Source of the DNA: Escherichia coli
GTDB lineage: Bacteria > Pseudomonadota > Gammaproteobacteria > Enterobacterales > Enterobacteriaceae
NCBI RefSeq assembly: GCF_003018235.1
Contig: NZ_CP027437.1
Direction: 5' to 3' (one strand)
DNA: 64,000 nucleotides
Of this stretch, positions 1-32,306 are shown piece by piece; the stretch's first letter is position 1, and each line of letters starts with the position of its first letter. A model generated the notes under the pieces. That model saw only the letters and a list, made by a program, of their open reading frames with translations, was not told where the DNA came from and made no database searches. The position numbers were made by a program, and so were the translations under genes.

Positions 1-17
1 GGGGTAAGATTTCCGGC

Positions 18-521
18 TCATGATTCGATGATTTTCAGAAACGGGTTAGTGGCTTTCTTCTGCCCCGCCAGGCCAATCAGACGCTGGCGGCTGCTGGGGT
101 CGAGTCCGAGCATTGCCCCCGTGCTGCTCATCTCGGACTCCTGTTCTTTTTTGGCGGTCAGCTCCGGGTTTTTGACCATACCGCCCATTGCACCGGTGAT
201 GGTGTTGCCCTGGCTGGCAATATTCTTCACGGCACGTCGCCAGAACTCATAGGCCACGCACCACCGCTCAAGTACCGCCAGGTCAGTCACGCACAACAGG
301 CCCTGACCGCAGAGTTCTTTGGTTGTCAGTTGCCACATGATCGTGGCGAGAGGGAGATCTTCTTCAGCGAACCACTCCGGTGGCTCAACACCTTTGATGG
401 GCGTAAAAACAGGTTCATCTTTGTTCAGGGCTCGCTTGCCGGGGTTTCCGGCCAGCGCCTTGCGCGCCGTTGGCTTGGGGCGACGCCCGGAACGCCCCGC
501 CGTTCCAGCCATATGCGGCAC
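18..521 (-). CDS. Phage terminase small subunit, P27 family
   Basis: 167 aa. N-terminal GRSGRRPKPTARKALAGNPGKRALNKDEP is the typical P27-family TerS motif. It sits downstream of an HNH gene, as in HK97-like cos packaging modules. Confidence 0.8.
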   Translation of the reverse strand: MPHMAGTAGRSGRRPKPTARKALAGNPGKRALNKDEPVFTPIKGVEPPEWFAEEDLPLATIMWQLTTKELCGQGLLCVTDLAVLERWCVAYEFWRRAVKNIASQGNTITGAMGGMVKNPELTAKKEQESEMSSTGAMLGLDPSSRQRLIGLAGQKKATNPFLKIIES

Positions 522-551
522 TCCTGGTTAAATTTCATTTTTCGCGGGTAT

Positions 552-611
552 AAAAAAACGATGGGGCGGGCAGTCCGGAAGACATCAGGTCACAGGGATT
601 TGACCCGCCCC
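552..611 (-). terminator. GC-rich hairpin plus U-tract between HNH and terS (terminator-like; the cos site may lie in this gap)
   Basis: GGGGCGGG (563-570) pairs with CCCGCCCC (604-611). On the minus strand this is followed by ATCGTTTTTTTA. The loop is long (33 nt), so the call is tentative. Confidence 0.35.
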
Positions 612-637
612 TCCCCTCTGGCAGTGGGAACTGGTTC

Positions 638-988
638 TTACTTCAGCCATTCACGGGCCGTCTTCGCCTTGTGGCACGGCCAGCACAGACTCTGCAGATT
701 ACTGTCGGCATCAGTGCCGCCATGTGCTTTAGGGATGATGTGGTCAACGGTTTTCGCCTCACGCACCACACCGGCACGCAGACATAACTGACACAGGCCT
801 TTGTCACGCTTCAGGACACGCACGCGGATAACATCCCACTTCGAACCATAACCGCGCTGATGACGAGATTGTCCTGGCTTGTATTGCTTCCAGCCTTCGC
901 TTTTATGGCTTTCACAATAGCCTGACGGGTCAGTAGTGGTATTGCGGCAACCGCGAACGCGGCAGGCTTTTGGTGTTCGTGGCGGCAT
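638..988 (-). CDS. HNH endonuclease (packaging-associated)
   Basis: 116 aa with the motif CQLC...VDHIIPKAHGGTDADSNLQSLCWPCHKAKT (HNH/zinc finger). Adjacent to terS. Confidence 0.85.
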   Translation of the reverse strand: MPPRTPKACRVRGCRNTTTDPSGYCESHKSEGWKQYKPGQSRHQRGYGSKWDVIRVRVLKRDKGLCQLCLRAGVVREAKTVDHIIPKAHGGTDADSNLQSLCWPCHKAKTAREWLK

Positions 989-1040
989 ATCTACTCCAAT
1001 GAAAAAGCTACCGGTTGATAACCGATGGCTTTGATTGTTC

Positions 1041-1235
1041 TTACCTGTTTTGAAGAATCTCCCGCTTTCTTACAATACATTCCGTCGTTTCTCTATAGCT
1101 GCACACGTGCTCCCGTGAACATTGGTATGTGTGCAATTCGCCGATGGCATCACCGATACCAGTCAGCACATCTTTTTCATGCAGAATGGTCACCTGCAGA
1201 CGGTTGGTTGGGCAGATAATGTTTGAATAGTTCAT
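1041..1235 (-). CDS. Hypothetical 64-aa phage protein
   Basis: Internal ATG of ORF 1041..1412, preceded by AAGGAG 8 nt upstream (minus strand: gcaaaggagacaccaaaATG). The SD lies inside a 12-bp inverted repeat at 1236-1268. Confidence 0.5.
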   Translation of the reverse strand: MNYSNIICPTNRLQVTILHEKDVLTGIGDAIGELHTYQCSREHVCSYRETTECIVRKREILQNR

Positions 1236-1409
1236 TTTGGTGTCTCCTTTGCTTTCGAGACACCAAAATCCCATCACGACACGTTTACCGCCACAAACAT
1301 TATTGCAGGCACCCATTGAATACCTGCGGGACTGATAAACACAGCCTCCTCCATACGTAGTGAAACCATTTTCATATCTCCAGTAATGAATTCTTTGAAG
1401 AGTCGCAAT

Positions 1410-1432
1410 CAATACGACTCACTAATGGGGAG
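1410..1432 (+). promoter_or_regulatory. T7-group phage RNA-polymerase promoter-like sequence
   Basis: cAATACGACTCACTAATGGGGAG versus the T7 consensus TAATACGACTCACTATAGGGAGA. Fourteen contiguous identities cover -16..-3 and a GGG start is present. Confidence 0.4.
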
Positions 1433-1535
1433 GCATGTCCAACGCGTTGGACGAGTTGCCTACTTGATTTAGATGACACTTTAGAAGGACAGAATGCCTT
1501 CCTCACTCAAATAACATCAATTAAGGAGGTTCAAC

Positions 1536-1658
1536 ATGCTTCGTTCCAAAAGTCAGTTGACTGTAATTATTACTACGTCACCTTATGCCGAAGACCTTTT
1601 CCGCTTCACTTTGAGCCTGATTCACTTCTACCTGACCGGCTCGCCTCTATCCTTCTGA
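1536..1658 (+). CDS. Hypothetical 40-aa peptide behind a consensus SD
   Basis: TAAGGAGGT, 5 nt, ATG. Translation MLRSKSQLTVIITTSPYAEDLFRFTLSLIHFYLTGSPLSF. It overlaps the 3' end of Rz1 in antisense, so it may be non-functional. Confidence 0.3.
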   Translation: MLRSKSQLTVIITTSPYAEDLFRFTLSLIHFYLTGSPLSF

Positions 1659-1881
1659 TCCCCGCTTTATCCAGATTGCACTGCCCTAGCGCCGACAACA
1701 GACTGACATTCAAATCTAGACTACCCGCATAAGTCAGCGGTTCAGAAATGGCTGGTTGCGGGGTTTCAGCGGTCAGACTCGCCGGTAACGGTATAGCCGG
1801 AACTGGCACGTAAACTGTCCGCGAACTTTCGCAACCGGTCAGCAGCGGCAGCAGGCACAGGGCGTACAGCACAATCATCAT
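1606..1881 (-). CDS. Rz1-like outer-membrane spanin lipoprotein (overlapped type)
   Basis: Starts MMIVLYALCLLPLLTGC (lipobox LLTGC) in the +1 frame inside Rz, followed by a Pro-rich mature part. It extends past the Rz stop. Confidence 0.65.
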   Translation of the reverse strand: MMIVLYALCLLPLLTGCESSRTVYVPVPAIPLPASLTAETPQPAISEPLTYAGSLDLNVSLLSALGQCNLDKAGIRRIEASRSGRSESGSK

Positions 1882-2158
1882 CCGCAACAGCCACTTTGAT
1901 ATCAGCCTGGGTTCTCTGTGACTCCAGTGCGATCTGCTGTTTTGCATGCTGGTTAGCCTCCAGAACTGTATTGACGATTTGCAGTGATTGCAGGACGTTA
2001 TTGGTAATAGCGGTTGCCGATTCGGCATTTTGTACAGCCTCATCAGCACGTTTCTTTTCGCGCTGGTATTTGCTGTGGTAGTGGTTAGCTGACCAGACGA
2101 GAGAACCGAATAAAGTCAGGAGGAAAGCAGAAATAACCAGCTTATAGCGAAGTTTCAT
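1766..2158 (-). CDS. Rz-like inner-membrane spanin
   Basis: MKLRYKLVISAFLLTLFGSLVW gives an N-terminal TM segment, followed by coiled-coil-like sequence. It sits immediately after the endolysin and contains the embedded Rz1 start. Confidence 0.75.
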   Translation of the reverse strand: MKLRYKLVISAFLLTLFGSLVWSANHYHSKYQREKKRADEAVQNAESATAITNNVLQSLQIVNTVLEANQHAKQQIALESQRTQADIKVAVADDDCAVRPVPAAAADRLRKFADSLRASSGYTVTGESDR

Positions 2159-2618
2159 TAACCACCCCGCCAGCTTCTTTGAATTTGGCAATCAGACTAT
2201 CGATCTTGTGTTCATACTGACCGTAGCCAGCACCGGGCAATGAGGCCCAAATATTGCTGCAACGATCAATAGCCTGACGAATATCACCCCGATCAATCAG
2301 CGGCAGCGCGCCGCGTTCTTTAATCTGCTGTAACGCCACCGCATCCTGGCTTTTCGGGGAGAAATCTTTCAGTCCAAGCTGTTTACGGTAGGCGTCCCAC
2401 CATTTCGACAGCAGTTGATAACGCCCGGCGGCGGTGGATTTCAGTTTCGGGTTAAGCGTAACCAGCTTACGTGGATGATCGGAGTAATCAGTAAGCAGTT
2501 CGCCACCAACGATAACGTCATAACCATGATTTCTGGTCTTCTGCCATCCGTTATCAGTTCCTTCTGACCACGCCAGCATATCGAGGAAGGCTTTACGCTG
2601 AGGATTAAGGTTTTGCAT
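2142..2618 (-). CDS. R: Endolysin, lambda R-type lytic transglycosylase
   Basis: 158 aa. QRKAFLDMLAWSEGTDNG..TRNHGYDVIVGGEL..DYSDHPRKLVTLNPKL is recalled as near-identical to lambda R. Confidence 0.93.
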   Translation of the reverse strand: MQNLNPQRKAFLDMLAWSEGTDNGWQKTRNHGYDVIVGGELLTDYSDHPRKLVTLNPKLKSTAAGRYQLLSKWWDAYRKQLGLKDFSPKSQDAVALQQIKERGALPLIDRGDIRQAIDRCSNIWASLPGAGYGQYEHKIDSLIAKFKEAGGVVNETSL

Positions 2619-2922
2619 TTTTCACCCCTGTCAGTCGTTCCCAGAAGTAAGTCAGCGCAACTGAACCCATTGCACCGCTGATCCCTGCTGTGGCGAGAAT
2701 CATGTAAATGCTAAATCCGCTTTCGATACTTATCAGGCCACCAATAACACCGGTAAAACCCGATACCACTATCTGAGCCAGAGCATTAATCCAGCTCCAT
2801 GTTGCTTTGCTCTGCTTCACATCAATCAGGTAACGGACAAGCCCGCCCCAGCACGCGAAGATCAGCAGAACGAGCCAGGACATCCCGGCAATGCTCTCTT
2901 TTTCGTGCATATGAATAGCCAT
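2605..2922 (-). CDS. Holin (105 aa, dual-start MAIHM motif)
   Basis: Lies directly upstream of the endolysin and overlaps it. Has multiple hydrophobic segments (WLVLLIFACWGGLV, IVVSGFTGVIGGLISI, IYMILATAGISGAMGSVAL) and two Met codons 4 codons apart. Confidence 0.7.
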   Translation of the reverse strand: MAIHMHEKESIAGMSWLVLLIFACWGGLVRYLIDVKQSKATWSWINALAQIVVSGFTGVIGGLISIESGFSIYMILATAGISGAMGSVALTYFWERLTGVKNAKP

Positions 2923-2951
2923 GATTTTGCCGCCGACGGATGATCGGGACT

Positions 2952-3449
2952 CTAAATGATAGGGAACAGACTCACGGGGTAATTTAACGACAAAGCACGG
3001 AGTTGAAGATCCCCACAAGCCTGGAATAAAAAAGCCAGCGACAGGCTGGCAATGTGAGGGTAACGCAAAGTGCTTAGAAACAAAAAAAGGCCGCCATCGG
3101 CGACCTTCGAGGTATCTAGCGTGCTGGATACTTTCAGCTTCGCCTTCAATTCAGCGTTGATTTCTTTCAGGCGATCAACATCGTTTTTAAGTTTTTCAAT
3201 GTCTTGCCCTTTATTATCAAGGTCGCGCTGAAGACCTTTAATAATTTCTGTTTGGGCCGCCTGTACTTCTCGTGTCGTCTGGAGAGACTTATCAATATCA
3301 TCAACTTGGTTAATCAAGCGTGTACCGAAAAAGCCTACAACTAACATAGTTATCCCAACCATAAAGTTGAGAACCCAGACTTTTGTTCCGGAAGCAGTGT
3401 TTGGAGTTTCGTCGATAAAGTGCACCTTATGCCAGTTAAAGTTACCCAA
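2952..3449 (-). CDS. Hypothetical membrane-anchored coiled-coil protein (moron); 3' extent doubtful
   Basis: TTG start, one TM segment (VWVLNFMVGITMLVVGFFG), then a heptad-like region (DIEKLKNDVDRLKEINAELKAKLK). The last ~45 codons read through two terminator hairpins. Confidence 0.4.
   Translation of the reverse strand: MGNFNWHKVHFIDETPNTASGTKVWVLNFMVGITMLVVGFFGTRLINQVDDIDKSLQTTREVQAAQTEIIKGLQRDLDNKGQDIEKLKNDVDRLKEINAELKAKLKVSSTLDTSKVADGGLFLFLSTLRYPHIASLSLAFLFQACGDLQLRALSLNYPVSLFPII
3025..3050 (-). terminator. Rho-independent terminator upstream of the holin
   Basis: Minus strand: GCCAGC-ctgtc-GCTGGC followed by TTTTTTATT. Confidence 0.6.
3082..3105 (-). terminator. Rho-independent terminator
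   Basis: Minus strand: GGTCGCC-gat-GGCGGCC (one G-U pair) followed by TTTTTTTGTTT. Confidence 0.55.
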
Positions 3450-3537
3450 CGTCTGCGCAGATCGTTAGATTCGGCAACATTGTAACTGGATAAGGAATAG
3501 AAAACCTTGGAATTTTAAGAAGAAACTGATTGATCGA

Positions 3538-3627
3538 TTATTTAACGAGCGAACACATCCATACACCCCAGACGGGTACTACGACAAAGGCCATGAAATA
3601 AGTAACTTTTGCTTGAATGTTTTGCAT
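3538..3627 (-). CDS. Hypothetical 29-aa hydrophobic peptide
   Basis: AAGGAA SD, 5 nt, ATG. Translation MQNIQAKVTYFMAFVVVPVWGVWMCSLVK. Too short for the ORF track. Confidence 0.3.
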   Translation of the reverse strand: MQNIQAKVTYFMAFVVVPVWGVWMCSLVK

Positions 3628-3750
3628 TTCGCTTCCTTAGCAGTCCGATAAGTACTGTCTGCTCATCCAACCTAACGAATGTAGATCAGAATGACAAGTC
3701 TTTCGCGCTAATTTCAATTTGATATCTGTTCGTAAACATGATGGCGCGAA

Positions 3751-3779
3751 ATATTACGCATGAAGTGCTTCTACATCAA
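3751..3779 (-). promoter_or_regulatory. Candidate sigma70 promoter of the moron
   Basis: Minus strand: TTGATG, 17 nt, TAATAT. Confidence 0.35.
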
Positions 3780-3811
3780 CATAAAAGTTACTTTTTTTGT
3801 GTTCACAGCAT

Positions 3812-3843
3812 GTAAAGTAAAAGCCCCGCACGATGGCGAGGCT
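3812..3843 (-). terminator. Terminator about 80 nt downstream of the candidate late promoter (tR'-like)
   Basis: Minus strand: AGCCTCGC-catcgt-GCGGGGCT (8 bp, one G-U pair) followed by TTTACTTTAC. Confidence 0.5.
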
Positions 3844-3896
3844 GTTAATTCTTTGTCGACCAACAAAGCTATGGCGACGATATCAGATTTACATGA

Positions 3897-3925
3897 AATA
3901 TAAGCGTTTCAGTTCGGTTTTGCAA
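3897..3925 (-). promoter_or_regulatory. Candidate late promoter pR' overlapping the Q stop codon
   Basis: Minus strand: TTGCAA, 17 nt, TATATT. A -10-like TAAAT in the initial transcribed region could serve as a sigma-dependent pause for Q loading. Confidence 0.5.
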
Positions 3926-4598
3926 GACTTACGTGCAAACTTGTCGCCTTTTGTTGTGAACGTGATCGCGTTACTGAGATAAGCGCACCGCTATCGAGTC
4001 GCATAAAGCAGCTACGCATTGCCAACCAGTGAGGCAGGTATGTCTCTGTCCAGGTGGATTTCGCCACGCCAACCAGTTCCGCCAGCTTCTGGTATTCGTA
4101 GGCATCTTTCCCGACCAACCCTGCTTTGACATCCTGCGCTGCCAGCCATATCAGCTTCTTCAGGCGCTCCATGGTCTTGCCTGCCACCCTCTTCGCGCCG
4201 AGATACCCCCTGAATTCAGACCACGCCCACTGGGTGATCGCCACCTGGTATTCAAAGCTGATGTTTTCACTGTAACTCCACAGCAACCACGCTTTCTGAT
4301 GTTCTTCGAGAGACAGAACCGCGCGGCGCCATGAAGATGTTGAGAACTCAACCTGGCTGACCAGTGCAATGGATGAACCTTTTGCGTACGACTGCTTACC
4401 GGAAATCGGCGGATTATCCAGCGTAATCATCTTGCCCGTTACCTCATCCAGAATGCGCGGCTTCTTTCGTTTATATGTACCAGTATCAAATTGTGCATGC
4501 TCCAGCCAGGCTTCAAGCTGGCCTTTCGTTGCTCCGCTCAAATCAGCAGTAGCCACAATGAGTTGCTCGCGGACATACTGTAAATATTGGGTATTCAT
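3909..4598 (-). CDS. Late-gene antiterminator Q (229 aa; not the short K-12 QuuD type)
   Basis: Position between ylcG/rusA and the lysis cassette. The sequence resembles the long Q-family antiterminators of lambdoid prophages, by recall only. Confidence 0.75.
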   Translation of the reverse strand: MNTQYLQYVREQLIVATADLSGATKGQLEAWLEHAQFDTGTYKRKKPRILDEVTGKMITLDNPPISGKQSYAKGSSIALVSQVEFSTSSWRRAVLSLEEHQKAWLLWSYSENISFEYQVAITQWAWSEFRGYLGAKRVAGKTMERLKKLIWLAAQDVKAGLVGKDAYEYQKLAELVGVAKSTWTETYLPHWLAMRSCFMRLDSGALISVTRSRSQQKATSLHVSLAKPN

Positions 4599-5544: not shown

Positions 5545-5999
5545 TACGCCTCCTGCTTGTCGCGCAGCAGCTGGAACTCGCAGCTCTGTGGAATAGTCAG
5601 GTGGCAACCAATATTCATCGCCCAGGCTTCAACCTTACACAGGAAGACATACATCTCTCCGGTATCAAGATCGGAGGTATGGCGTAACGACTGGATAGTG
5701 GTGATATCACCGGTTACGACATCAACCAGGTCTTTGGTTTCATAACCGAGATATGTGTGTTTGAGAGCATCTTTTACCCAAGCTGGAGTGGCGAACGTTT
5801 TACCCCTGCTGATGAGGTATTCACTGATTTCGCTGTACCACATGTGGCTGAGTGCATTCTGGGAAAGACTGCGTCTCTCGCGCCACGGTTTAAGCACCAT
5901 GCGAAAGCATTTGCCGTCCTCCAGATAAGGCTGGATCTGCCGACCGATAGCGGTGAAGTTACCGCGATGCAATTTGATACCATCTTGTGGGAGGTTCAC
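5544..5999 (-). CDS. ybcN: YbcN (NinB-position DNA-binding protein)
   Basis: 151 aa, GTG start. [41 protein letters not shown] matches recalled YbcN. Confidence 0.9.
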
Positions 6000-6097
6000 G
6001 CTTCACCTCCGCAGAGATCAAACGCTGGATGCAAAATATCGCAGGTGCATTTCTGCATCTGTGAATGGAGAAGAGAGGTTGGATTGTATGTGCGCAT
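5996..6097 (-). CDS. ylcH: YlcH-like small protein (33 aa)
   Basis: [33 protein letters not shown]. The stop overlaps the ybcN GTG (GTGA). Confidence 0.55.
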
Positions 6098-7583: not shown

Positions 7584-9110
7584 TCAAAAATAAACCTCAC
7601 CATCAACCATATATTTGAGAGTACTTATCGCCTGCCGGGCGGATATTGTTTTCATTAAAGGATAGTGTTTAAAAACAATGCCATTCATAAAATAGATATC
7701 ACAGGTTTTATTATCTGTATTGATTATGATTTTTTCGAATGTTTTATAGGCAAGTGTACGACATAGCTCTCGCCCATTTTTACTGGTTAAGTCAATAGCA
7801 TGAAAATCACCAAGTGAGCTCACCGCTTTACTCTTCAAAGTTTTTAATGATACAGAAGCCCTTCGTAATTCCTTATCTAATACTCTGATTTTTTCTGCTA
7901 TAGCGGTAACTTCAGGCGCAACAGATAATGCAGCAATTAAATTATTAATTTTCATATGGAGCTCAATAATTCTCAACTCTAAAGTTTCATTAGCATCTTT
8001 CTTGTTTTCAACTGGTTGGATTTTACTACAATTAAAAAGCAACTCATTAATGATATTATAATCAACCAAATCTCTCTTTATTGATGGCCTGCCACATCGA
8101 TGCAGTCTTCTCATCGGACAAACATAATAGCCATGCAAACTTCCAGATACCGCATGAACAATCATGGTATTACCACAAGCCTCGCACTTCATAACTGTTC
8201 GAAGTAGATTTATCAACATAGGATTTTTGCTACTATTGCTAATACCAAAAGGTGCCAACCGAATTTCCTGCACAGCGTAAAACAAATCATCTGATATGAC
8301 TCTGGGATAATAGCCAGCGATTTCACTTATTCCTTTACCTCTTGCACGATATGAAGGTACGCATATACCTATCAGAGCTTTATTCGCTAATAATTTTTCA
8401 ATTACAGAAGGCCCCCATGCACTTTCTTTTCCTGAGAAATTCTTTACAGCATGATCATTTAAATACTTGGCTATTGCATTCAATGAGCGCCTTTCCATCC
8501 TGAGTTTAAAAATTAGCTCAATAGTTTTCACCCTGTCGGGGTCTGGAACAAAAGCCGTTCTTTTGTCATCTAAGGAGAGCCATCTCGGACAAGACGCCGT
8601 CATAATCGTACCTGATTCCAGTGCATCCTGCCGTTTTTTCTTCCATGATAATTTAACCCGACTTGACTTTATCTCGCTTTCTTCATTTGCCCTTTGTGCT
8701 ATAAGTATGGCTTTTATTAATGAATATGGCTCATTCAAAGAGTCAATATTATAGACTGTATTGTCGCAAAGAGTTATAACATCAATACCGTGATTCAAAA
8801 TCAATTTCAGACGTTCAATCGCTTCACCGACTTTTTCTCTTGAAAGTCTGTCCAGACTTTCAACTAACAATGTAGTTCCTGGCAATATATAACCATGCTC
8901 TATAGCATCTAAAAATTCCGAAAAAGCTCCTGATTGTGCATGCTTTCCTTTGAATGCACTTAATCCTAAATCTTCATATGTTATGGTATCAAGATAATAA
9001 TCACTATTTACCTTTAACCATTCAGCAATAAGTCTTCTCTGTCGGTTTAATGAGTCGCCAGACATCTGACCTGGTGATGAAAATCGCATATATGCTATGG
9101 CTTTTTTCAT
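7584..9110 (-). CDS. ybcK: Large serine recombinase YbcK
   Basis: 508 aa. MKKAIAYMRFSSPGQMSGDSLNRQ contains the resolvase catalytic Ser region. A recombinase/zinc-ribbon C-terminal part (CEACG...CPMRRLHRC) follows. The length equals K-12 YbcK. Confidence 0.9.
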   Translation of the reverse strand: MKKAIAYMRFSSPGQMSGDSLNRQRRLIAEWLKVNSDYYLDTITYEDLGLSAFKGKHAQSGAFSEFLDAIEHGYILPGTTLLVESLDRLSREKVGEAIERLKLILNHGIDVITLCDNTVYNIDSLNEPYSLIKAILIAQRANEESEIKSSRVKLSWKKKRQDALESGTIMTASCPRWLSLDDKRTAFVPDPDRVKTIELIFKLRMERRSLNAIAKYLNDHAVKNFSGKESAWGPSVIEKLLANKALIGICVPSYRARGKGISEIAGYYPRVISDDLFYAVQEIRLAPFGISNSSKNPMLINLLRTVMKCEACGNTMIVHAVSGSLHGYYVCPMRRLHRCGRPSIKRDLVDYNIINELLFNCSKIQPVENKKDANETLELRIIELHMKINNLIAALSVAPEVTAIAEKIRVLDKELRRASVSLKTLKSKAVSSLGDFHAIDLTSKNGRELCRTLAYKTFEKIIINTDNKTCDIYFMNGIVFKHYPLMKTISARQAISTLKYMVDGEVYF

Positions 9111-13491: not shown

Positions 13492-14553
13492 ATGGATACT
13501 TTAAAATATGAGAAATTCTCTGATTTTGATCACAATGACCCATTTTTTGACTCTTTAAAAAAAGATTATAAAGAGTTTCCTCTTTGGTTAGAAAAAAAAG
13601 CCAGAGAAGGAGAATCAGCTTATGTGCTCTATGATGACAAGCATAAAATCGAAGGTTTTATGTATCTAAAAGAAAATGATGATGCAAATGACATTAATCC
13701 AGCGCTCCCACCAGGACGTCATCTAAAGATAGGAACATTCAAATTTGAATCTAAAGGCACCCTTCGCGGACAACGATTTCTAAAAAAAGCGTTTGACCAT
13801 GCATTTTCATCAAAATCTGATGATATTTATGTTACTGTTTTCGACAAACACGTCCATCTAATAAAACTTTTCCAAACGTACGGATTTTACATTCATGGTG
13901 AAAAAGAAACACATAACGGGAAAGAGTTTGTATATGCGAGGTCTTTGCATGAGCCTTATGGTGATATTTTATTAGATTACCCTCGAATAATGACATCAAG
14001 GGCCAACAAATATTTACTGGCGATTTATCCCGAATATCACACTAGACTATTCCCTGATTCAAAACTTGTAAATGAATCACCAGATATTGTCAAAGATATA
14101 TCCCATGCTAACAGCATTCATAAAATTTACATATGTGGAATGCGTTCTGTGATGGGAATGAAAAGAGGAGATATCATTGTCATCTATAGAACCGGAGACA
14201 AAAAAGGGCCAGCTCGCTATCGTTCTGTAGCCAGTACATTATGTGTAGTTGAGAGCGTAAAAAATATTTCTGAATTTTTAAGCGAAGATAGTTTTGTAGA
14301 CTATTGTATTCGTTTTAGCGTATTTTCTGAAGATGAACTCAGAAAAATCTATAAAGAACGTCGATACCCTTTCATTATAAGATTCACATACAATCTGTCT
14401 TTGCCAAAGAGACCCAATCGTGCTATTTTAATAGATCATGTGGGGCTAAATGGTTCGCGTGCATTCCGATGGAGTCACTTTAAACTCACAAATGAGCAGT
14501 TCTTAAAGATCATCGAGTTAGGCAAGATAAATGAAAGTTTTATTATCCATTAA
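13492..14553 (+). CDS. Two-domain accessory protein: GNAT-like N-terminal half plus PUA-like (EVE/ASCH-like) C-terminal half
   Basis: 353 aa (357 if started at 13480). GTLRGQRFLKKAFDHA and LIKLFQTYGFYIHGE resemble GNAT motif A and the following GF strand. MKRGDIIVIYRTG...YRSVASTLCVVESV resembles a PUA-like beta-barrel. Domain calls were made by eye. The gene is visibly AT-rich. Confidence 0.55.
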   Translation: MDTLKYEKFSDFDHNDPFFDSLKKDYKEFPLWLEKKAREGESAYVLYDDKHKIEGFMYLKENDDANDINPALPPGRHLKIGTFKFESKGTLRGQRFLKKAFDHAFSSKSDDIYVTVFDKHVHLIKLFQTYGFYIHGEKETHNGKEFVYARSLHEPYGDILLDYPRIMTSRANKYLLAIYPEYHTRLFPDSKLVNESPDIVKDISHANSIHKIYICGMRSVMGMKRGDIIVIYRTGDKKGPARYRSVASTLCVVESVKNISEFLSEDSFVDYCIRFSVFSEDELRKIYKERRYPFIIRFTYNLSLPKRPNRAILIDHVGLNGSRAFRWSHFKLTNEQFLKIIELGKINESFIIH

Positions 14554-20090: not shown

Positions 20091-20167
20091 TGGCGCGCCC
20101 TGCAGGATTCGAACCTGCGGCCCACGACTTAGAAGGTCGTTGCTCTATCCAACTGAGCTAAGGGCGC
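20091..20167 (-). tRNA. argU: tRNA-Arg (anticodon UCU)
   Basis: Minus strand: GCGCCCTTAGCTCAGTTGGATAGAGCAACGACCTTCTAAGTCGTGGGCCGCAGGTTCGAATCCTGCAGGGCGCGCCA. 77 nt, cloverleaf, encoded CCA. Confidence 0.97.
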
Positions 20168-31796: not shown

Positions 31797-32306
31797 ATGT
31801 CTTCCCGCAATAATCCGGCGCGTGTCGCCATCGTGATGGGGTCCAAAAGCGACTGGGCTACCATGCAGTTCGCCGCCGAAATCTTCGAAATCCTGAATGT
31901 CCCACACCACGTTGAAGTGGTTTCTGCTCACCGCACCCCCGATAAACTGTTCAGCTTCGCCGAAAGTGCCGAAGAGAACGGTTATCAGGTGATTATTGCG
32001 GGCGCAGGCGGCGCAGCGCACCTGCCTGGCATGATTGCCGCCAAAACGCTGGTGCCAGTGCTGGGCGTGCCAGTACAGAGCGCCGCACTGAGCGGTGTCG
32101 ATAGTCTCTACTCCATCGTACAAATGCCGCGCGGCATTCCGGTGGGTACACTGGCGATTGGTAAAGCTGGCGCGGCAAACGCGGCATTACTGGCAGCACA
32201 AATTCTCGCGACTCACGATAAAGAGCTACACCAGCGTCTGAATGACTGGCGCAAAGCCCAGACTGACGAAGTGCTGGAAAACCCGGACCCGCGAGGTGCG
32301 GCATGA
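31797..32306 (+). CDS. purE: N5-CAIR mutase
   Basis: 169 aa, [38 protein letters not shown]. Confidence 0.95.

Follow-up and report, generated by a model that had tools for sequence, protein, structure and literature searches.

The window analysed here, a stretch of 64,000 nucleotides from Escherichia coli (RefSeq assembly GCF_003018235.1, contig NZ_CP027437.1), carries within a lambdoid prophage a small plus-strand element, at about positions 1400-1658, in which two tandem promoter-like sites of the kind used by single-subunit phage RNA polymerases precede a 40-codon open reading frame (ORF). We propose that positions 1410-1658 constitute a small expression cassette (moron) placed at the classic bor position and directed against the prophage late operon, which would be silent in the lysogen and expressed once an Autographiviridae phage infects and supplies its polymerase, the probable purpose being exclusion or abortive infection. 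On the basis of the comparative data presented below, this reading as a whole is given a probability of about 0.6; a functional role of the promoters and the ORF, taken by itself, appears likely, and the attribution of a defensive effect to the peptide is tentative. A preliminary description of the locus had put forward a T7-group promoter serving a small ORF, and this core claim is now backed by comparative evidence, namely promoter scores, a second promoter, selection on the ORF and promoter types matched to the host. The element comprises the following features.

1400-1420, no strand assigned: inverted repeat GAGTCG / CGACTC, sharing -12 to -7 with the T7-type promoter, of uncertain significance.
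1410-1432, plus strand: putative T7-group promoter (Studiervirinae, Berlin type), -17 to +6, cAATACGACTCACTAATGGGGAG, predicted start at the G at 1427.
1431-1458, plus strand: stem-loop, +5 to +32 of the predicted T7-type transcript, with the palindrome at 1437-1452 as its core.
1467-1489, plus strand: putative SP6-group promoter (Molineuxvirinae), -17 to +6, ATTTAGATGACACTTTAGAAGGA, predicted start at the G at 1484.
1484-1501, plus strand: hairpin GAAGG-ACAGAATG-CCTTC, beginning at the predicted +1 of the SP6-type promoter.
1522-1530, plus strand: Shine-Dalgarno sequence TAAGGAGGT, followed after 5 nucleotides by the ATG at 1536.
1536-1658, plus strand: 40-codon ORF, MLRSKSQLTVIITTSPYAEDLFRFTLSLIHFYLTGSPLSF, with a variable N-terminal half and a conserved C-terminal half.

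Promoter matrices were built from each phage's own natural promoter sites and both strands of the 64 kb were scanned. The 1410-1432 sequence returned 33.6 bits with the matrix of the Yersinia phage Berlin (natural promoters 25.9-37.6 bits; next best site in the window 7.4) and 26.2 bits with the T7 matrix, at the lower edge of the natural range of 26.0-39.2 (next best 7.7), and its score thus falls inside the range of the phages' own promoters, as expected for a T7-group promoter. The T7-type sequence had been placed correctly by the preliminary description, and its 14-mer AATACGACTCACTA (1411-1424), judged there to exceed chance, is unique in the window even when two mismatches are allowed, in agreement with the matrix scores. 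The whole 23-mer matched the T7 consensus at 17/23 positions and searches at up to 3 mismatches found nothing, while the Berlin promoter at 31844, CAATACGACTCACTATTGGGGAG, was matched at 22/23; the assignment to the T7 group therefore stands, with Berlin rather than T7 proper as the closest relative. The earlier statement that this is not a host sigma-70 promoter was also borne out, as a consensus scan of 900-2200 returned no sigma-70-like site against 1.6 expected in shuffled sequences.

The exact T7 14-mer occurs in 9 of 104 related loci, the usual form being CAATACAACTCACTAATGGAGAG with A instead of G at -11. A chance match was first suspected for this reason and was then dropped, because natural promoters with A at -11 were found (T7's own phiOL and two Berlin promoters) and a second promoter was recognised in the element. 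The form frequent in E. coli prophages, ACAACTCACTAATGG, is also found among the Berlin promoters.

The second promoter, absent from the preliminary description, lies 57 nucleotides downstream of the first on the same strand. Positions 1467-1487, ATTTAGATGACACTTTAGAAG, agreed with the SP6 consensus ATTTAGGTGACACTATAGAAG at 19/21 positions, and the corresponding sequence of the Shigella phage SfIV at 20/21. The SP6 matrix gave 27.4 bits for 1467-1489 (natural promoters 27.0-36.2; next best site in the window 12.5), a value within the SP6-group range and borderline for the window allele, and 31.9 bits for the SfIV allele. The common E. coli allele, ATTTACTGGACACTATAGAAGGA, scored 36.2 bits on the K1E matrix (natural promoters 19.8-37.6) and is identical at 23/23 positions to the promoter at 13925 of coliphage K1E, which has about ten sites of this consensus type. 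Each genome of K1-5, K1E and other Vectrevirus phages contained 6-9 matches to a 40-mer around the common allele, and the best matches of the window allele were found in SP6-like Salmonella phages. The stretch previously likened to the T7 gene-10 leader is in fact part of this SP6-type promoter.

As pGEM-type polylinkers combine T7 and SP6 promoters with a CCAACGCGTTGG site, contamination by a cloning vector was considered and rejected: both promoters lie on one strand, the element shows natural allelic variation and is carried by 634 complete genomes and by phage SfIV, and the common allele is of the K1E type, not the vector SP6 sequence. The clustering of two to four high-scoring sites might also point to a decoy that titrates the invader's polymerase off its own promoters. 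A single chromosomal copy would, however, have to compete with the 10-17 promoters on each of many replicating phage genomes, and a decoy needs neither a Shine-Dalgarno sequence nor an ATG nor a selected ORF, which makes this explanation very unlikely.

The strong Shine-Dalgarno sequence, the 5-nucleotide spacing and the 40-residue ORF of the preliminary description were all found as reported. Among the 35 distinct variants of alignment A2, a single AAGGAAG allele was the only departure from the AAGGAGG motif and the ATG, and the ORF was intact at exactly 40 codons in 100/100 related loci, representing 25 distinct nucleotide sequences. The 3' end of the ORF overlaps by 53 nucleotides that of lysC, the o-spanin gene on the minus strand, being antisense to the last 17 lysC codons and the stop codon, and the distinct changes were therefore counted frame by frame. 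Codons 21-41 showed 9 synonymous and 3 non-synonymous changes in the ORF (+) frame against 2 and 10 in the lysC (-) frame; the other frames gave mostly 1-3 : 8-10, with the exception of the antisense frame sharing the wobble positions (7 : 4). According to our own arithmetic, at least 9 synonymous changes out of 12 have a probability of about 4e-4 under a 25% expectation. Because 9:3 and 2:10 were obtained over the same bases, selection would act on the C-terminal half of the plus-strand peptide and not on the LysC tail, and this half, LFRFTLSLIHFYLTGSPLSF, is, to judge from the counts, under purifying selection. Conservation of the ORF merely as the antisense of lysC was rejected on the same frame-specific counts and on the retention of the ORF where lysC is truncated, as it stays intact in iss-bearing relatives in which only a 3' lysC remnant survives.

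Codons 2-20 showed 3 synonymous and 25 non-synonymous changes in the ORF (+) frame. This N-terminal half is fast-changing, with shuffled alleles, and appears to be under relaxed or diversifying selection. The peptide had no family match in Pfam, PHROGs, PADLOC or NCBIfam. Its borrowing from a T7-like phage was considered and discarded, since tblastn matches occurred in temperate phages only and none in Autographiviridae genomes. The best 19-residue Kyte-Doolittle window was 0.90 for the peptide of the window, 1.40 for the common E. coli version and 1.83 and 1.41 for Klebsiella versions, so that hydrophobicity goes from modest in the window allele to transmembrane-grade in the Klebsiella version with 1.83.

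Both predicted transcripts contain a hairpin close to their 5' end. The perfect 16-bp palindrome already noticed, GTCCAACGCGTTGGAC, is present at 1437-1452, and the 1431-1458 stem built on it gave across the relatives 358 Watson-Crick, 60 G-U and 24 mismatched cells when read on the plus strand, against 14 G-U and 70 mismatches on the minus strand. Paired cells amounted to 94.4%, versus 32-50% when the partners were slid, and 0 of 500 shuffles equalled this value. Two pairs were altered on both sides (CCAAC/GTTGG to CTCAC/GTGAG), and GCCTCAC/GTGAGGC and GCCCAAC/GTTGGGC are further compensated variants. The 1484-1501 hairpin was paired in 100% of cells, and its variants at +2/+3 form G-U pairs on the plus strand and mismatches on the minus strand. 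The G-U pattern thus supports the assignment of both hairpins to plus-strand RNA only. These two local hairpins take the place of the long-range pairing between GGAGGCATGTCC and GGACAGAATGCCTTCC proposed earlier, in which the A of GGCAT is a T in most relatives and is left uncompensated. A known RNA family was also considered, and the element had no match in Rfam.

The design of the 1484-1501 hairpin is shared by the capsid-gene leaders of K1E, SP6 and FBKp16. Comparison of the 55-nucleotide leader (1484 to the ATG) with the major-capsid leaders of K1E and SP6 returned z = 5-7, with 0-2 of 2000 shuffles reaching the observed value, and the shared parts are the 5' hairpin, ATCAAT and TAAGGAGGTT. 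These data suggest either past capture of the SP6-type promoter and leader from an SP6/K1E-like phage or close mimicry of one.

The inverted repeat at 1400-1420 lies upstream of both predicted starts and is thus not contained in the plus-strand transcripts. The pair including -11 covaries (C-G, T-A), with a C-A intermediate that becomes G-U on the minus strand only; this pattern favours the minus strand, and linkage, a minus-strand role and a DNA-level role would account for it equally well. It bears on the alternative that the element is a structure within the late transcript of the minus strand, or a site in the DNA that separates lysC from the HNH/terminase genes, its likeness to promoters being incidental. 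In line with such a role, folding of the minus strand is slightly better than that of shuffled sequences (z = -2.1), and in E. coli the HNH-TerS-TerL genes always lie downstream of the element. Host-matched scores of 27-36 bits, obtained with four independent phage matrices, cannot however be incidental, the two main hairpins favour the plus strand (60 versus 14 G-U pairs; 24 versus 70 mismatches), no Rfam family is matched, and in the Klebsiella locus L117 the left neighbour, as read from its sequence, does not look like an HNH gene. Taken together, these findings leave the minus-strand alternative hardly credible.

The distribution of the cassette was then considered. A search of 1380-1700 against phages and prophages, the check recommended by the preliminary description, showed that the element is conserved, with 99.4% identity in Shigella phage SfIV. 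The cassette occurs in 634/5426 complete E. coli genomes, among them ST131 and O157:H7 strains, with an identity of about 86% in most cases, and is kept beside different lysis cassettes, either of the lambda Rz/Rz1 type or of the LysB/LysC type. The downstream content varies: the window, SfIV and Klebsiella have the lysis genes in antisense, and the majority of E. coli copies continue with iss/bor in sense, about 300 nucleotides downstream, with the other type of lysis cassette beyond. Antisense RNA across the lysis genes, as proposed earlier, is unlikely to be the point of the element, because most relatives carry iss/bor downstream on the same strand instead.

The same region is relevant to the possibility that the promoters are functional and their payload is RNA or read-through, in the form of lysis-gene antisense, over-expression of iss/bor or run-away transcription of the prophage or chromosome. 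No strong plus-strand terminator was found past the ORF, the sole candidate being a weak stem of 5 bp at 2015-2027, T7-type polymerases read through most terminators of the host, and the proximity of iss on the same strand in most E. coli copies would fit as well. Against these points, the downstream content is not conserved between lineages, the Shine-Dalgarno sequence and the ATG are conserved, and the C-terminal half of the ORF is selected at the protein level; we consider a payload of this kind unlikely.

A protein search detected 38-residue versions of the peptide on 298 Klebsiella contigs, with the shared C-terminus LSLIHFYLTGSPLSF. Klebsiella prophages repeat the cassette design at the lysC 3' end, with the following parts.

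Part 1: T7-like site ATTAAGACTCACTATTAGGAAGG.
Part 2: the same hairpin as at 1431-1458, GGCTTGTCCAACACGTTGGACA.
Part 3: one or two copies of ATTAGTGGCGAG(T/G)ATAGAAG.
Part 4: hairpin GAAGAGGA-atcg-TCCTCTTC, starting at the predicted +1.
Part 5: AAAGGAGG, an ATG and a 38-codon ORF ending ...YLTG(S/Y)PLSF.

The Klebsiella motif ATTAGTGGCGAGTATAGAAGAGG scored 35.0 bits on the matrix of FBKp16 (natural promoters 27.0-36.7) and below -30 on all others, and matched 6-8 places per genome in Klebsiella SP6-like lytic phages, FBKp16 being such a phage. A third motif, TTTAATGTTACACGAGTAGGAA, located at 2330-2400 of locus L116 with equivalents in L122 and L124, was matched at 21/22 in about 225 Klebsiella phage records, those listed being KP34-like Drulisvirus. 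In KP34 it immediately follows the polymerase gene and recurs in a further intergenic region, and it presumably acts there as a promoter. The cassettes of L116, L122 and L124 also contain a fourth similar motif, AAGTTACACAATAGAAATC, with one 22/24 match in Klebsiella phage 6939.

Positions 1370-1450 of locus L128, from the 5.1-Mb enterobacterial assembly GCA_045625305.1, contain ATTTAGGTGACACTATAGAAGGA, which matches the SP6 capsid promoter at 22/23, together with the near-consensus Berlin-type promoter AATTACGACTCACTATTGGGAAA and the hairpin variant TCTAAC/GTTAGA. The 3.1-kb locus of L128 is covered to at most 29% in any complete E. coli genome. Locus L130 carries the K1E capsid promoter at 23/23. 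Scanning of one-genome-per-species contigs with two patterns gave no matches, and the cassettes described here come from Escherichia/Shigella, Klebsiella and the L128 assembly. As the sites are of the K1E type in E. coli, of the SP6 type in L128 and of the FBKp16 and KP34 types in Klebsiella, the promoter type appears to track the host's own lytic Autographiviridae while the architecture stays constant. The likeness to lytic phages is limited to promoter-length stretches, the leader excepted.

These comparisons also allowed us to weigh the simplest alternative, a mosaic scar, i.e., a fragment received from T7-/SP6-like phages by illegitimate recombination and lying passive at the lysis/packaging junction. 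The resemblance of the leader to the SP6 and K1E capsid leaders would agree with such an origin, as would the location at a module boundary, with insertion of a 64-residue ORF on one side and alternation of iss and lysC on the other, and the existence of one decayed copy, L121. Junctions inside the palindrome point the same way: in L013 (about 5990-6040) and L117 (2270-2300) the cassette homology ends inside or beside the palindrome, with unrelated sequence to the left, and the palindrome may be a preferred recombination junction. A passive fragment would not, however, have its promoter specificity swapped to match the lytic phages of each host genus, nor would its 40-codon ORF have stayed undamaged in 100/100 loci, with synonymous outnumbering non-synonymous changes 9:3; in addition, the Shine-Dalgarno sequence, the ATG and the hairpins at +1 are kept while neighbouring bases diverge, and the similarity to lytic phages extends only over promoter length. 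A scar is thus an improbable explanation of the element.

On these grounds the infection-triggered cassette remains the preferred interpretation, and the following mechanism can be put forward. The position and orientation of the cassette keep it out of the prophage's own late transcript, which runs antisense to the ORF and is produced in lytic growth only, and a cassette devoid of a host-type promoter would be expected to be silent in the lysogen. Upon infection, the polymerase of a T7-, SP6/K1E- or, in Klebsiella, KP34-like phage would transcribe it heavily from the two tandem promoters, with starts at 1427 (Berlin/T7 type) and 1484 (SP6 type). Each start would be followed by a 5' hairpin, as in phage late mRNAs, and then by the capsid-like leader with its strong ribosome-binding site and the 40-codon gene, so that the peptide would accumulate and harm the invader by exclusion or abortive infection, protecting sister lysogens. 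The target might be a generic host function such as the membrane: since the same payload is coupled to up to three polymerase subfamilies, a general host function is more likely than the protein of one phage, and the small size and partly hydrophobic character of the peptide suggest a membrane target. We infer the transcription by phage enzymes, the production of the peptide and the anti-phage effect from the comparisons described above. A more elaborate form of this model, for which we would give slightly less than even odds, depicts a modular polymerase alarm, in which orphan promoters for up to three subfamilies (T7-, SP6/K1E- and KP34-like), with specificity bases swapped to suit the predators, drive through a capsid-like leader a fast-evolving micro-peptide that aborts infection. 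Among the three readings offered by the preliminary description, the infection-triggered switch is therefore the best supported and the captured fragment is plausible for the origin of the SP6-type promoter and leader, whereas the decoy is unlikely.

Several observations weigh against the proposed model. At the promoter level, the alleles of the window are among the weaker ones: A and T occupy -2/-1 of the T7-type site, a combination present in just 2-3 of 13 Berlin promoters, and the SP6-type site, with T at -3 and A at -11, scores 27.4 bits, the bottom of the natural range. Weaker T7-type sites also occur in some lineages, the O157-type allele scoring 24.5 bits. At the RNA level, the folding energy of the whole segment is unremarkable (z = -1.3), and the covariation of the 1431-1458 stem may reflect few independent events and is supporting rather than decisive. 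Purifying selection is not seen on the N-terminal half of the peptide (3:25), searches of PADLOC and NCBIfam assigned the peptide to no known defence or toxin family, and, with its moderate hydrophobicity (0.90) in the window, a membrane toxin is a guess. Finally, the element can decay, as in L121 (Klebsiella, IMG/VR contig 2788499887_000005), which has lost its start codon (ATA), contains in-frame stops and lacks the T7-type site, with the FBKp16-type SP6-like motif and the hairpin persisting.

Orphan tandem promoters for a foreign polymerase have reportedly been described before. Chen and Schneider (2006) are reported to have identified enterobacterial islands of 4-13 kb, with a tyrosine (P4-type) integrase and flanking direct repeats, in which two or three T7-like promoters spread in tandem over 150-620 bp drive two to five phage-like genes in the absence of polymerase genes; these islands, possibly satellites, reportedly led them to propose the exploitation of a T7-like helper. 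The present cassette resembles the islands, as reported, in having orphan T7-group-type promoters arranged in tandem (two sites, at a distance of 57 bp) and no cognate polymerase gene: no single-subunit RNA polymerase was found among the six tested of the eight window ORFs of at least 450 residues, the other two being shorter than 500 residues, and the two ORFs of at least 800 residues encode a fimbrial usher and an FtsX-type permease. It differs from them, as reported, in lying inside a lambdoid late region and not in a separate integrase-bearing 4-13 kb island, in driving one 40-codon ORF and not two to five genes, and in mixing subfamilies, with T7-, SP6- and, in Klebsiella, KP34-type sites. 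Full-text literature searches returned no experimental report on such an element.

The helper exploitation reportedly proposed for those islands is a conceptual precedent for a satellite-like hijack, in which the prophage would use the invader's polymerase for its own escape or competition, for example by changing the timing of lysis. The cassette does lie in and overlap the lysis module, and its peptide is small and partly hydrophobic like lysis modulators. The prophage is, on the other hand, a complete lambdoid phage that has its own Q-dependent late transcription on the other strand, the cassette is retained alongside quite different lysis cassettes, and the rapid degradation of host DNA in T7-like infections leaves little time for escape. 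We therefore give little credence to a hijack and retain an exclusion or abortive-infection role as the preferred one.

Other known systems share single aspects with the cassette. The late promoters and capsid leaders of Autographiviridae (T7 phi10, SP6/K1E) have the same 23-bp promoter, G start, 5' hairpin, leader of 52-57 nucleotides and TAAGGAGGT before the ATG, but here they are found in a temperate phage lacking such a polymerase and ahead of a gene unrelated to any Autographiviridae gene. The lambda bor/iss morons occupy the same site just past the spanin genes, oriented opposite to late transcription, and the cassette adjoins iss in most E. coli copies. While expression of bor in the lysogen depends on the host polymerase, the cassette has phage-polymerase-type promoters, and the host-type promoter of its own that would characterise a bor/iss-type moron was not seen in the consensus scan of 900-2200. 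Resident promoters that respond to a factor from another phage are also known from P4, whose late promoters are activated by P2 Ogr, and from SaPI, whose operon I is activated by the helper LtrC, both serving satellite packaging. Those factors are activators of the host polymerase, whereas the signal for the cassette would be a complete foreign polymerase and its payload a single peptide. The disabling of an infected lysogen by a small, partly hydrophobic effector would recall PifA of the F plasmid, RexAB of lambda, Hok/Gef and TisB, which either respond to proteins or complexes of the phage or are under the control of an antisense RNA. The peptide belongs to none of these families as far as the searches show, and no abortive or exclusion system or type I toxin of this group is known to be set off when a phage polymerase recognises a promoter.

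If the model is correct, the defence itself recognises nothing, as it is the invader's polymerase that recognises the promoter of the defence, and the invader's own transcription machine becomes the trigger of immunity. The signal would arise within minutes of infection, and escape would require the phage to rewrite all of its own promoters. The cassette is carried by about 12% of complete E. coli genomes (ST131 and O157 included) and by many Klebsiella pneumoniae, and the phages concerned (K1-5/K1E, SP6-like, KP34-like and T7-like) are favoured for therapy, so that it could explain strain-specific failures. With regard to annotation, a 40-codon gene apparently under selection was missed by RefSeq (PGAP), which has nothing annotated at the cassette in the six E. 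coli genomes examined, and the natural sets of promoter variants might be used with orthogonal polymerases.

The element is surrounded by the minus-strand late region of an SfIV-like lambdoid prophage, with holin, endolysin, DUF2570 i-spanin and LysC o-spanin genes, and is flanked by lysC and the HNH/TerS/TerL genes, confirming its placement antisense to the lysis genes. The features of this region are as follows.

3909-4598, minus strand: Q antiterminator.
3820-3893, minus strand: isrJ-like short RNA (Rfam match).
2605-2931, minus strand: holin.
2142-2618, minus strand: endolysin.
1766-2158, minus strand: DUF2570 i-spanin.
1606-1881, minus strand: lysC, Rz1-like LysC-type o-spanin (Pfam LysC 1.8e-15; phrog_456 1e-26).
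About 1400-1658, plus strand: the element studied.
1041-1235, minus strand: 64-residue ORF (phrog_31491, to which no function is assigned).
638-988, minus strand: HNH endonuclease.
18-521, minus strand: P27-family small terminase.

The 64-residue ORF at 1041-1235 has a strong Shine-Dalgarno sequence and is preceded by a terminator-like hairpin at 1305-1327 on the minus strand. Compared with SfIV, the HNH gene and the cassette are set apart by an insertion of about 325 bp that contains this ORF, and two E. coli relatives have the ORF annotated as a hypothetical protein. A search of positions 1-4000 against Rfam gave isrJ as the only match, of full length at 3820-3893 on the minus strand, with 64.9 bits against a gathering score of 37. 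This sequence lies directly downstream of the Q gene and is probably a short late-promoter leader RNA with its terminator, in which case 'IsrJ' would be the lambdoid pR' leader transcript.

Farther away, a large serine recombinase gene with Resolvase, Recombinase and zinc-ribbon domains is located at 7584-9110 on the minus strand, about 6 kb from the cassette, and beyond it a tRNA-Arg(TCT) gene at 20091-20167, also on the minus strand; the remainder of the window is chromosomal (cysS, fimbrial usher). In relatives, the region between the holin gene and Q, corresponding to about 3000-3800 of the window, contains variable cargo genes on the same strand as the cassette, at the following positions.

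L008, 4367-5321
L007, 4740-5321
L005, 4840-5320
L006, 4445-5319

The cargo includes a KAP-family NTPase, a DUF3800 protein, a nucleoid-associated protein and hypothetical proteins, and the region looks like a variable hotspot; read-through of a phage polymerase from the cassette would reach these genes in sense.

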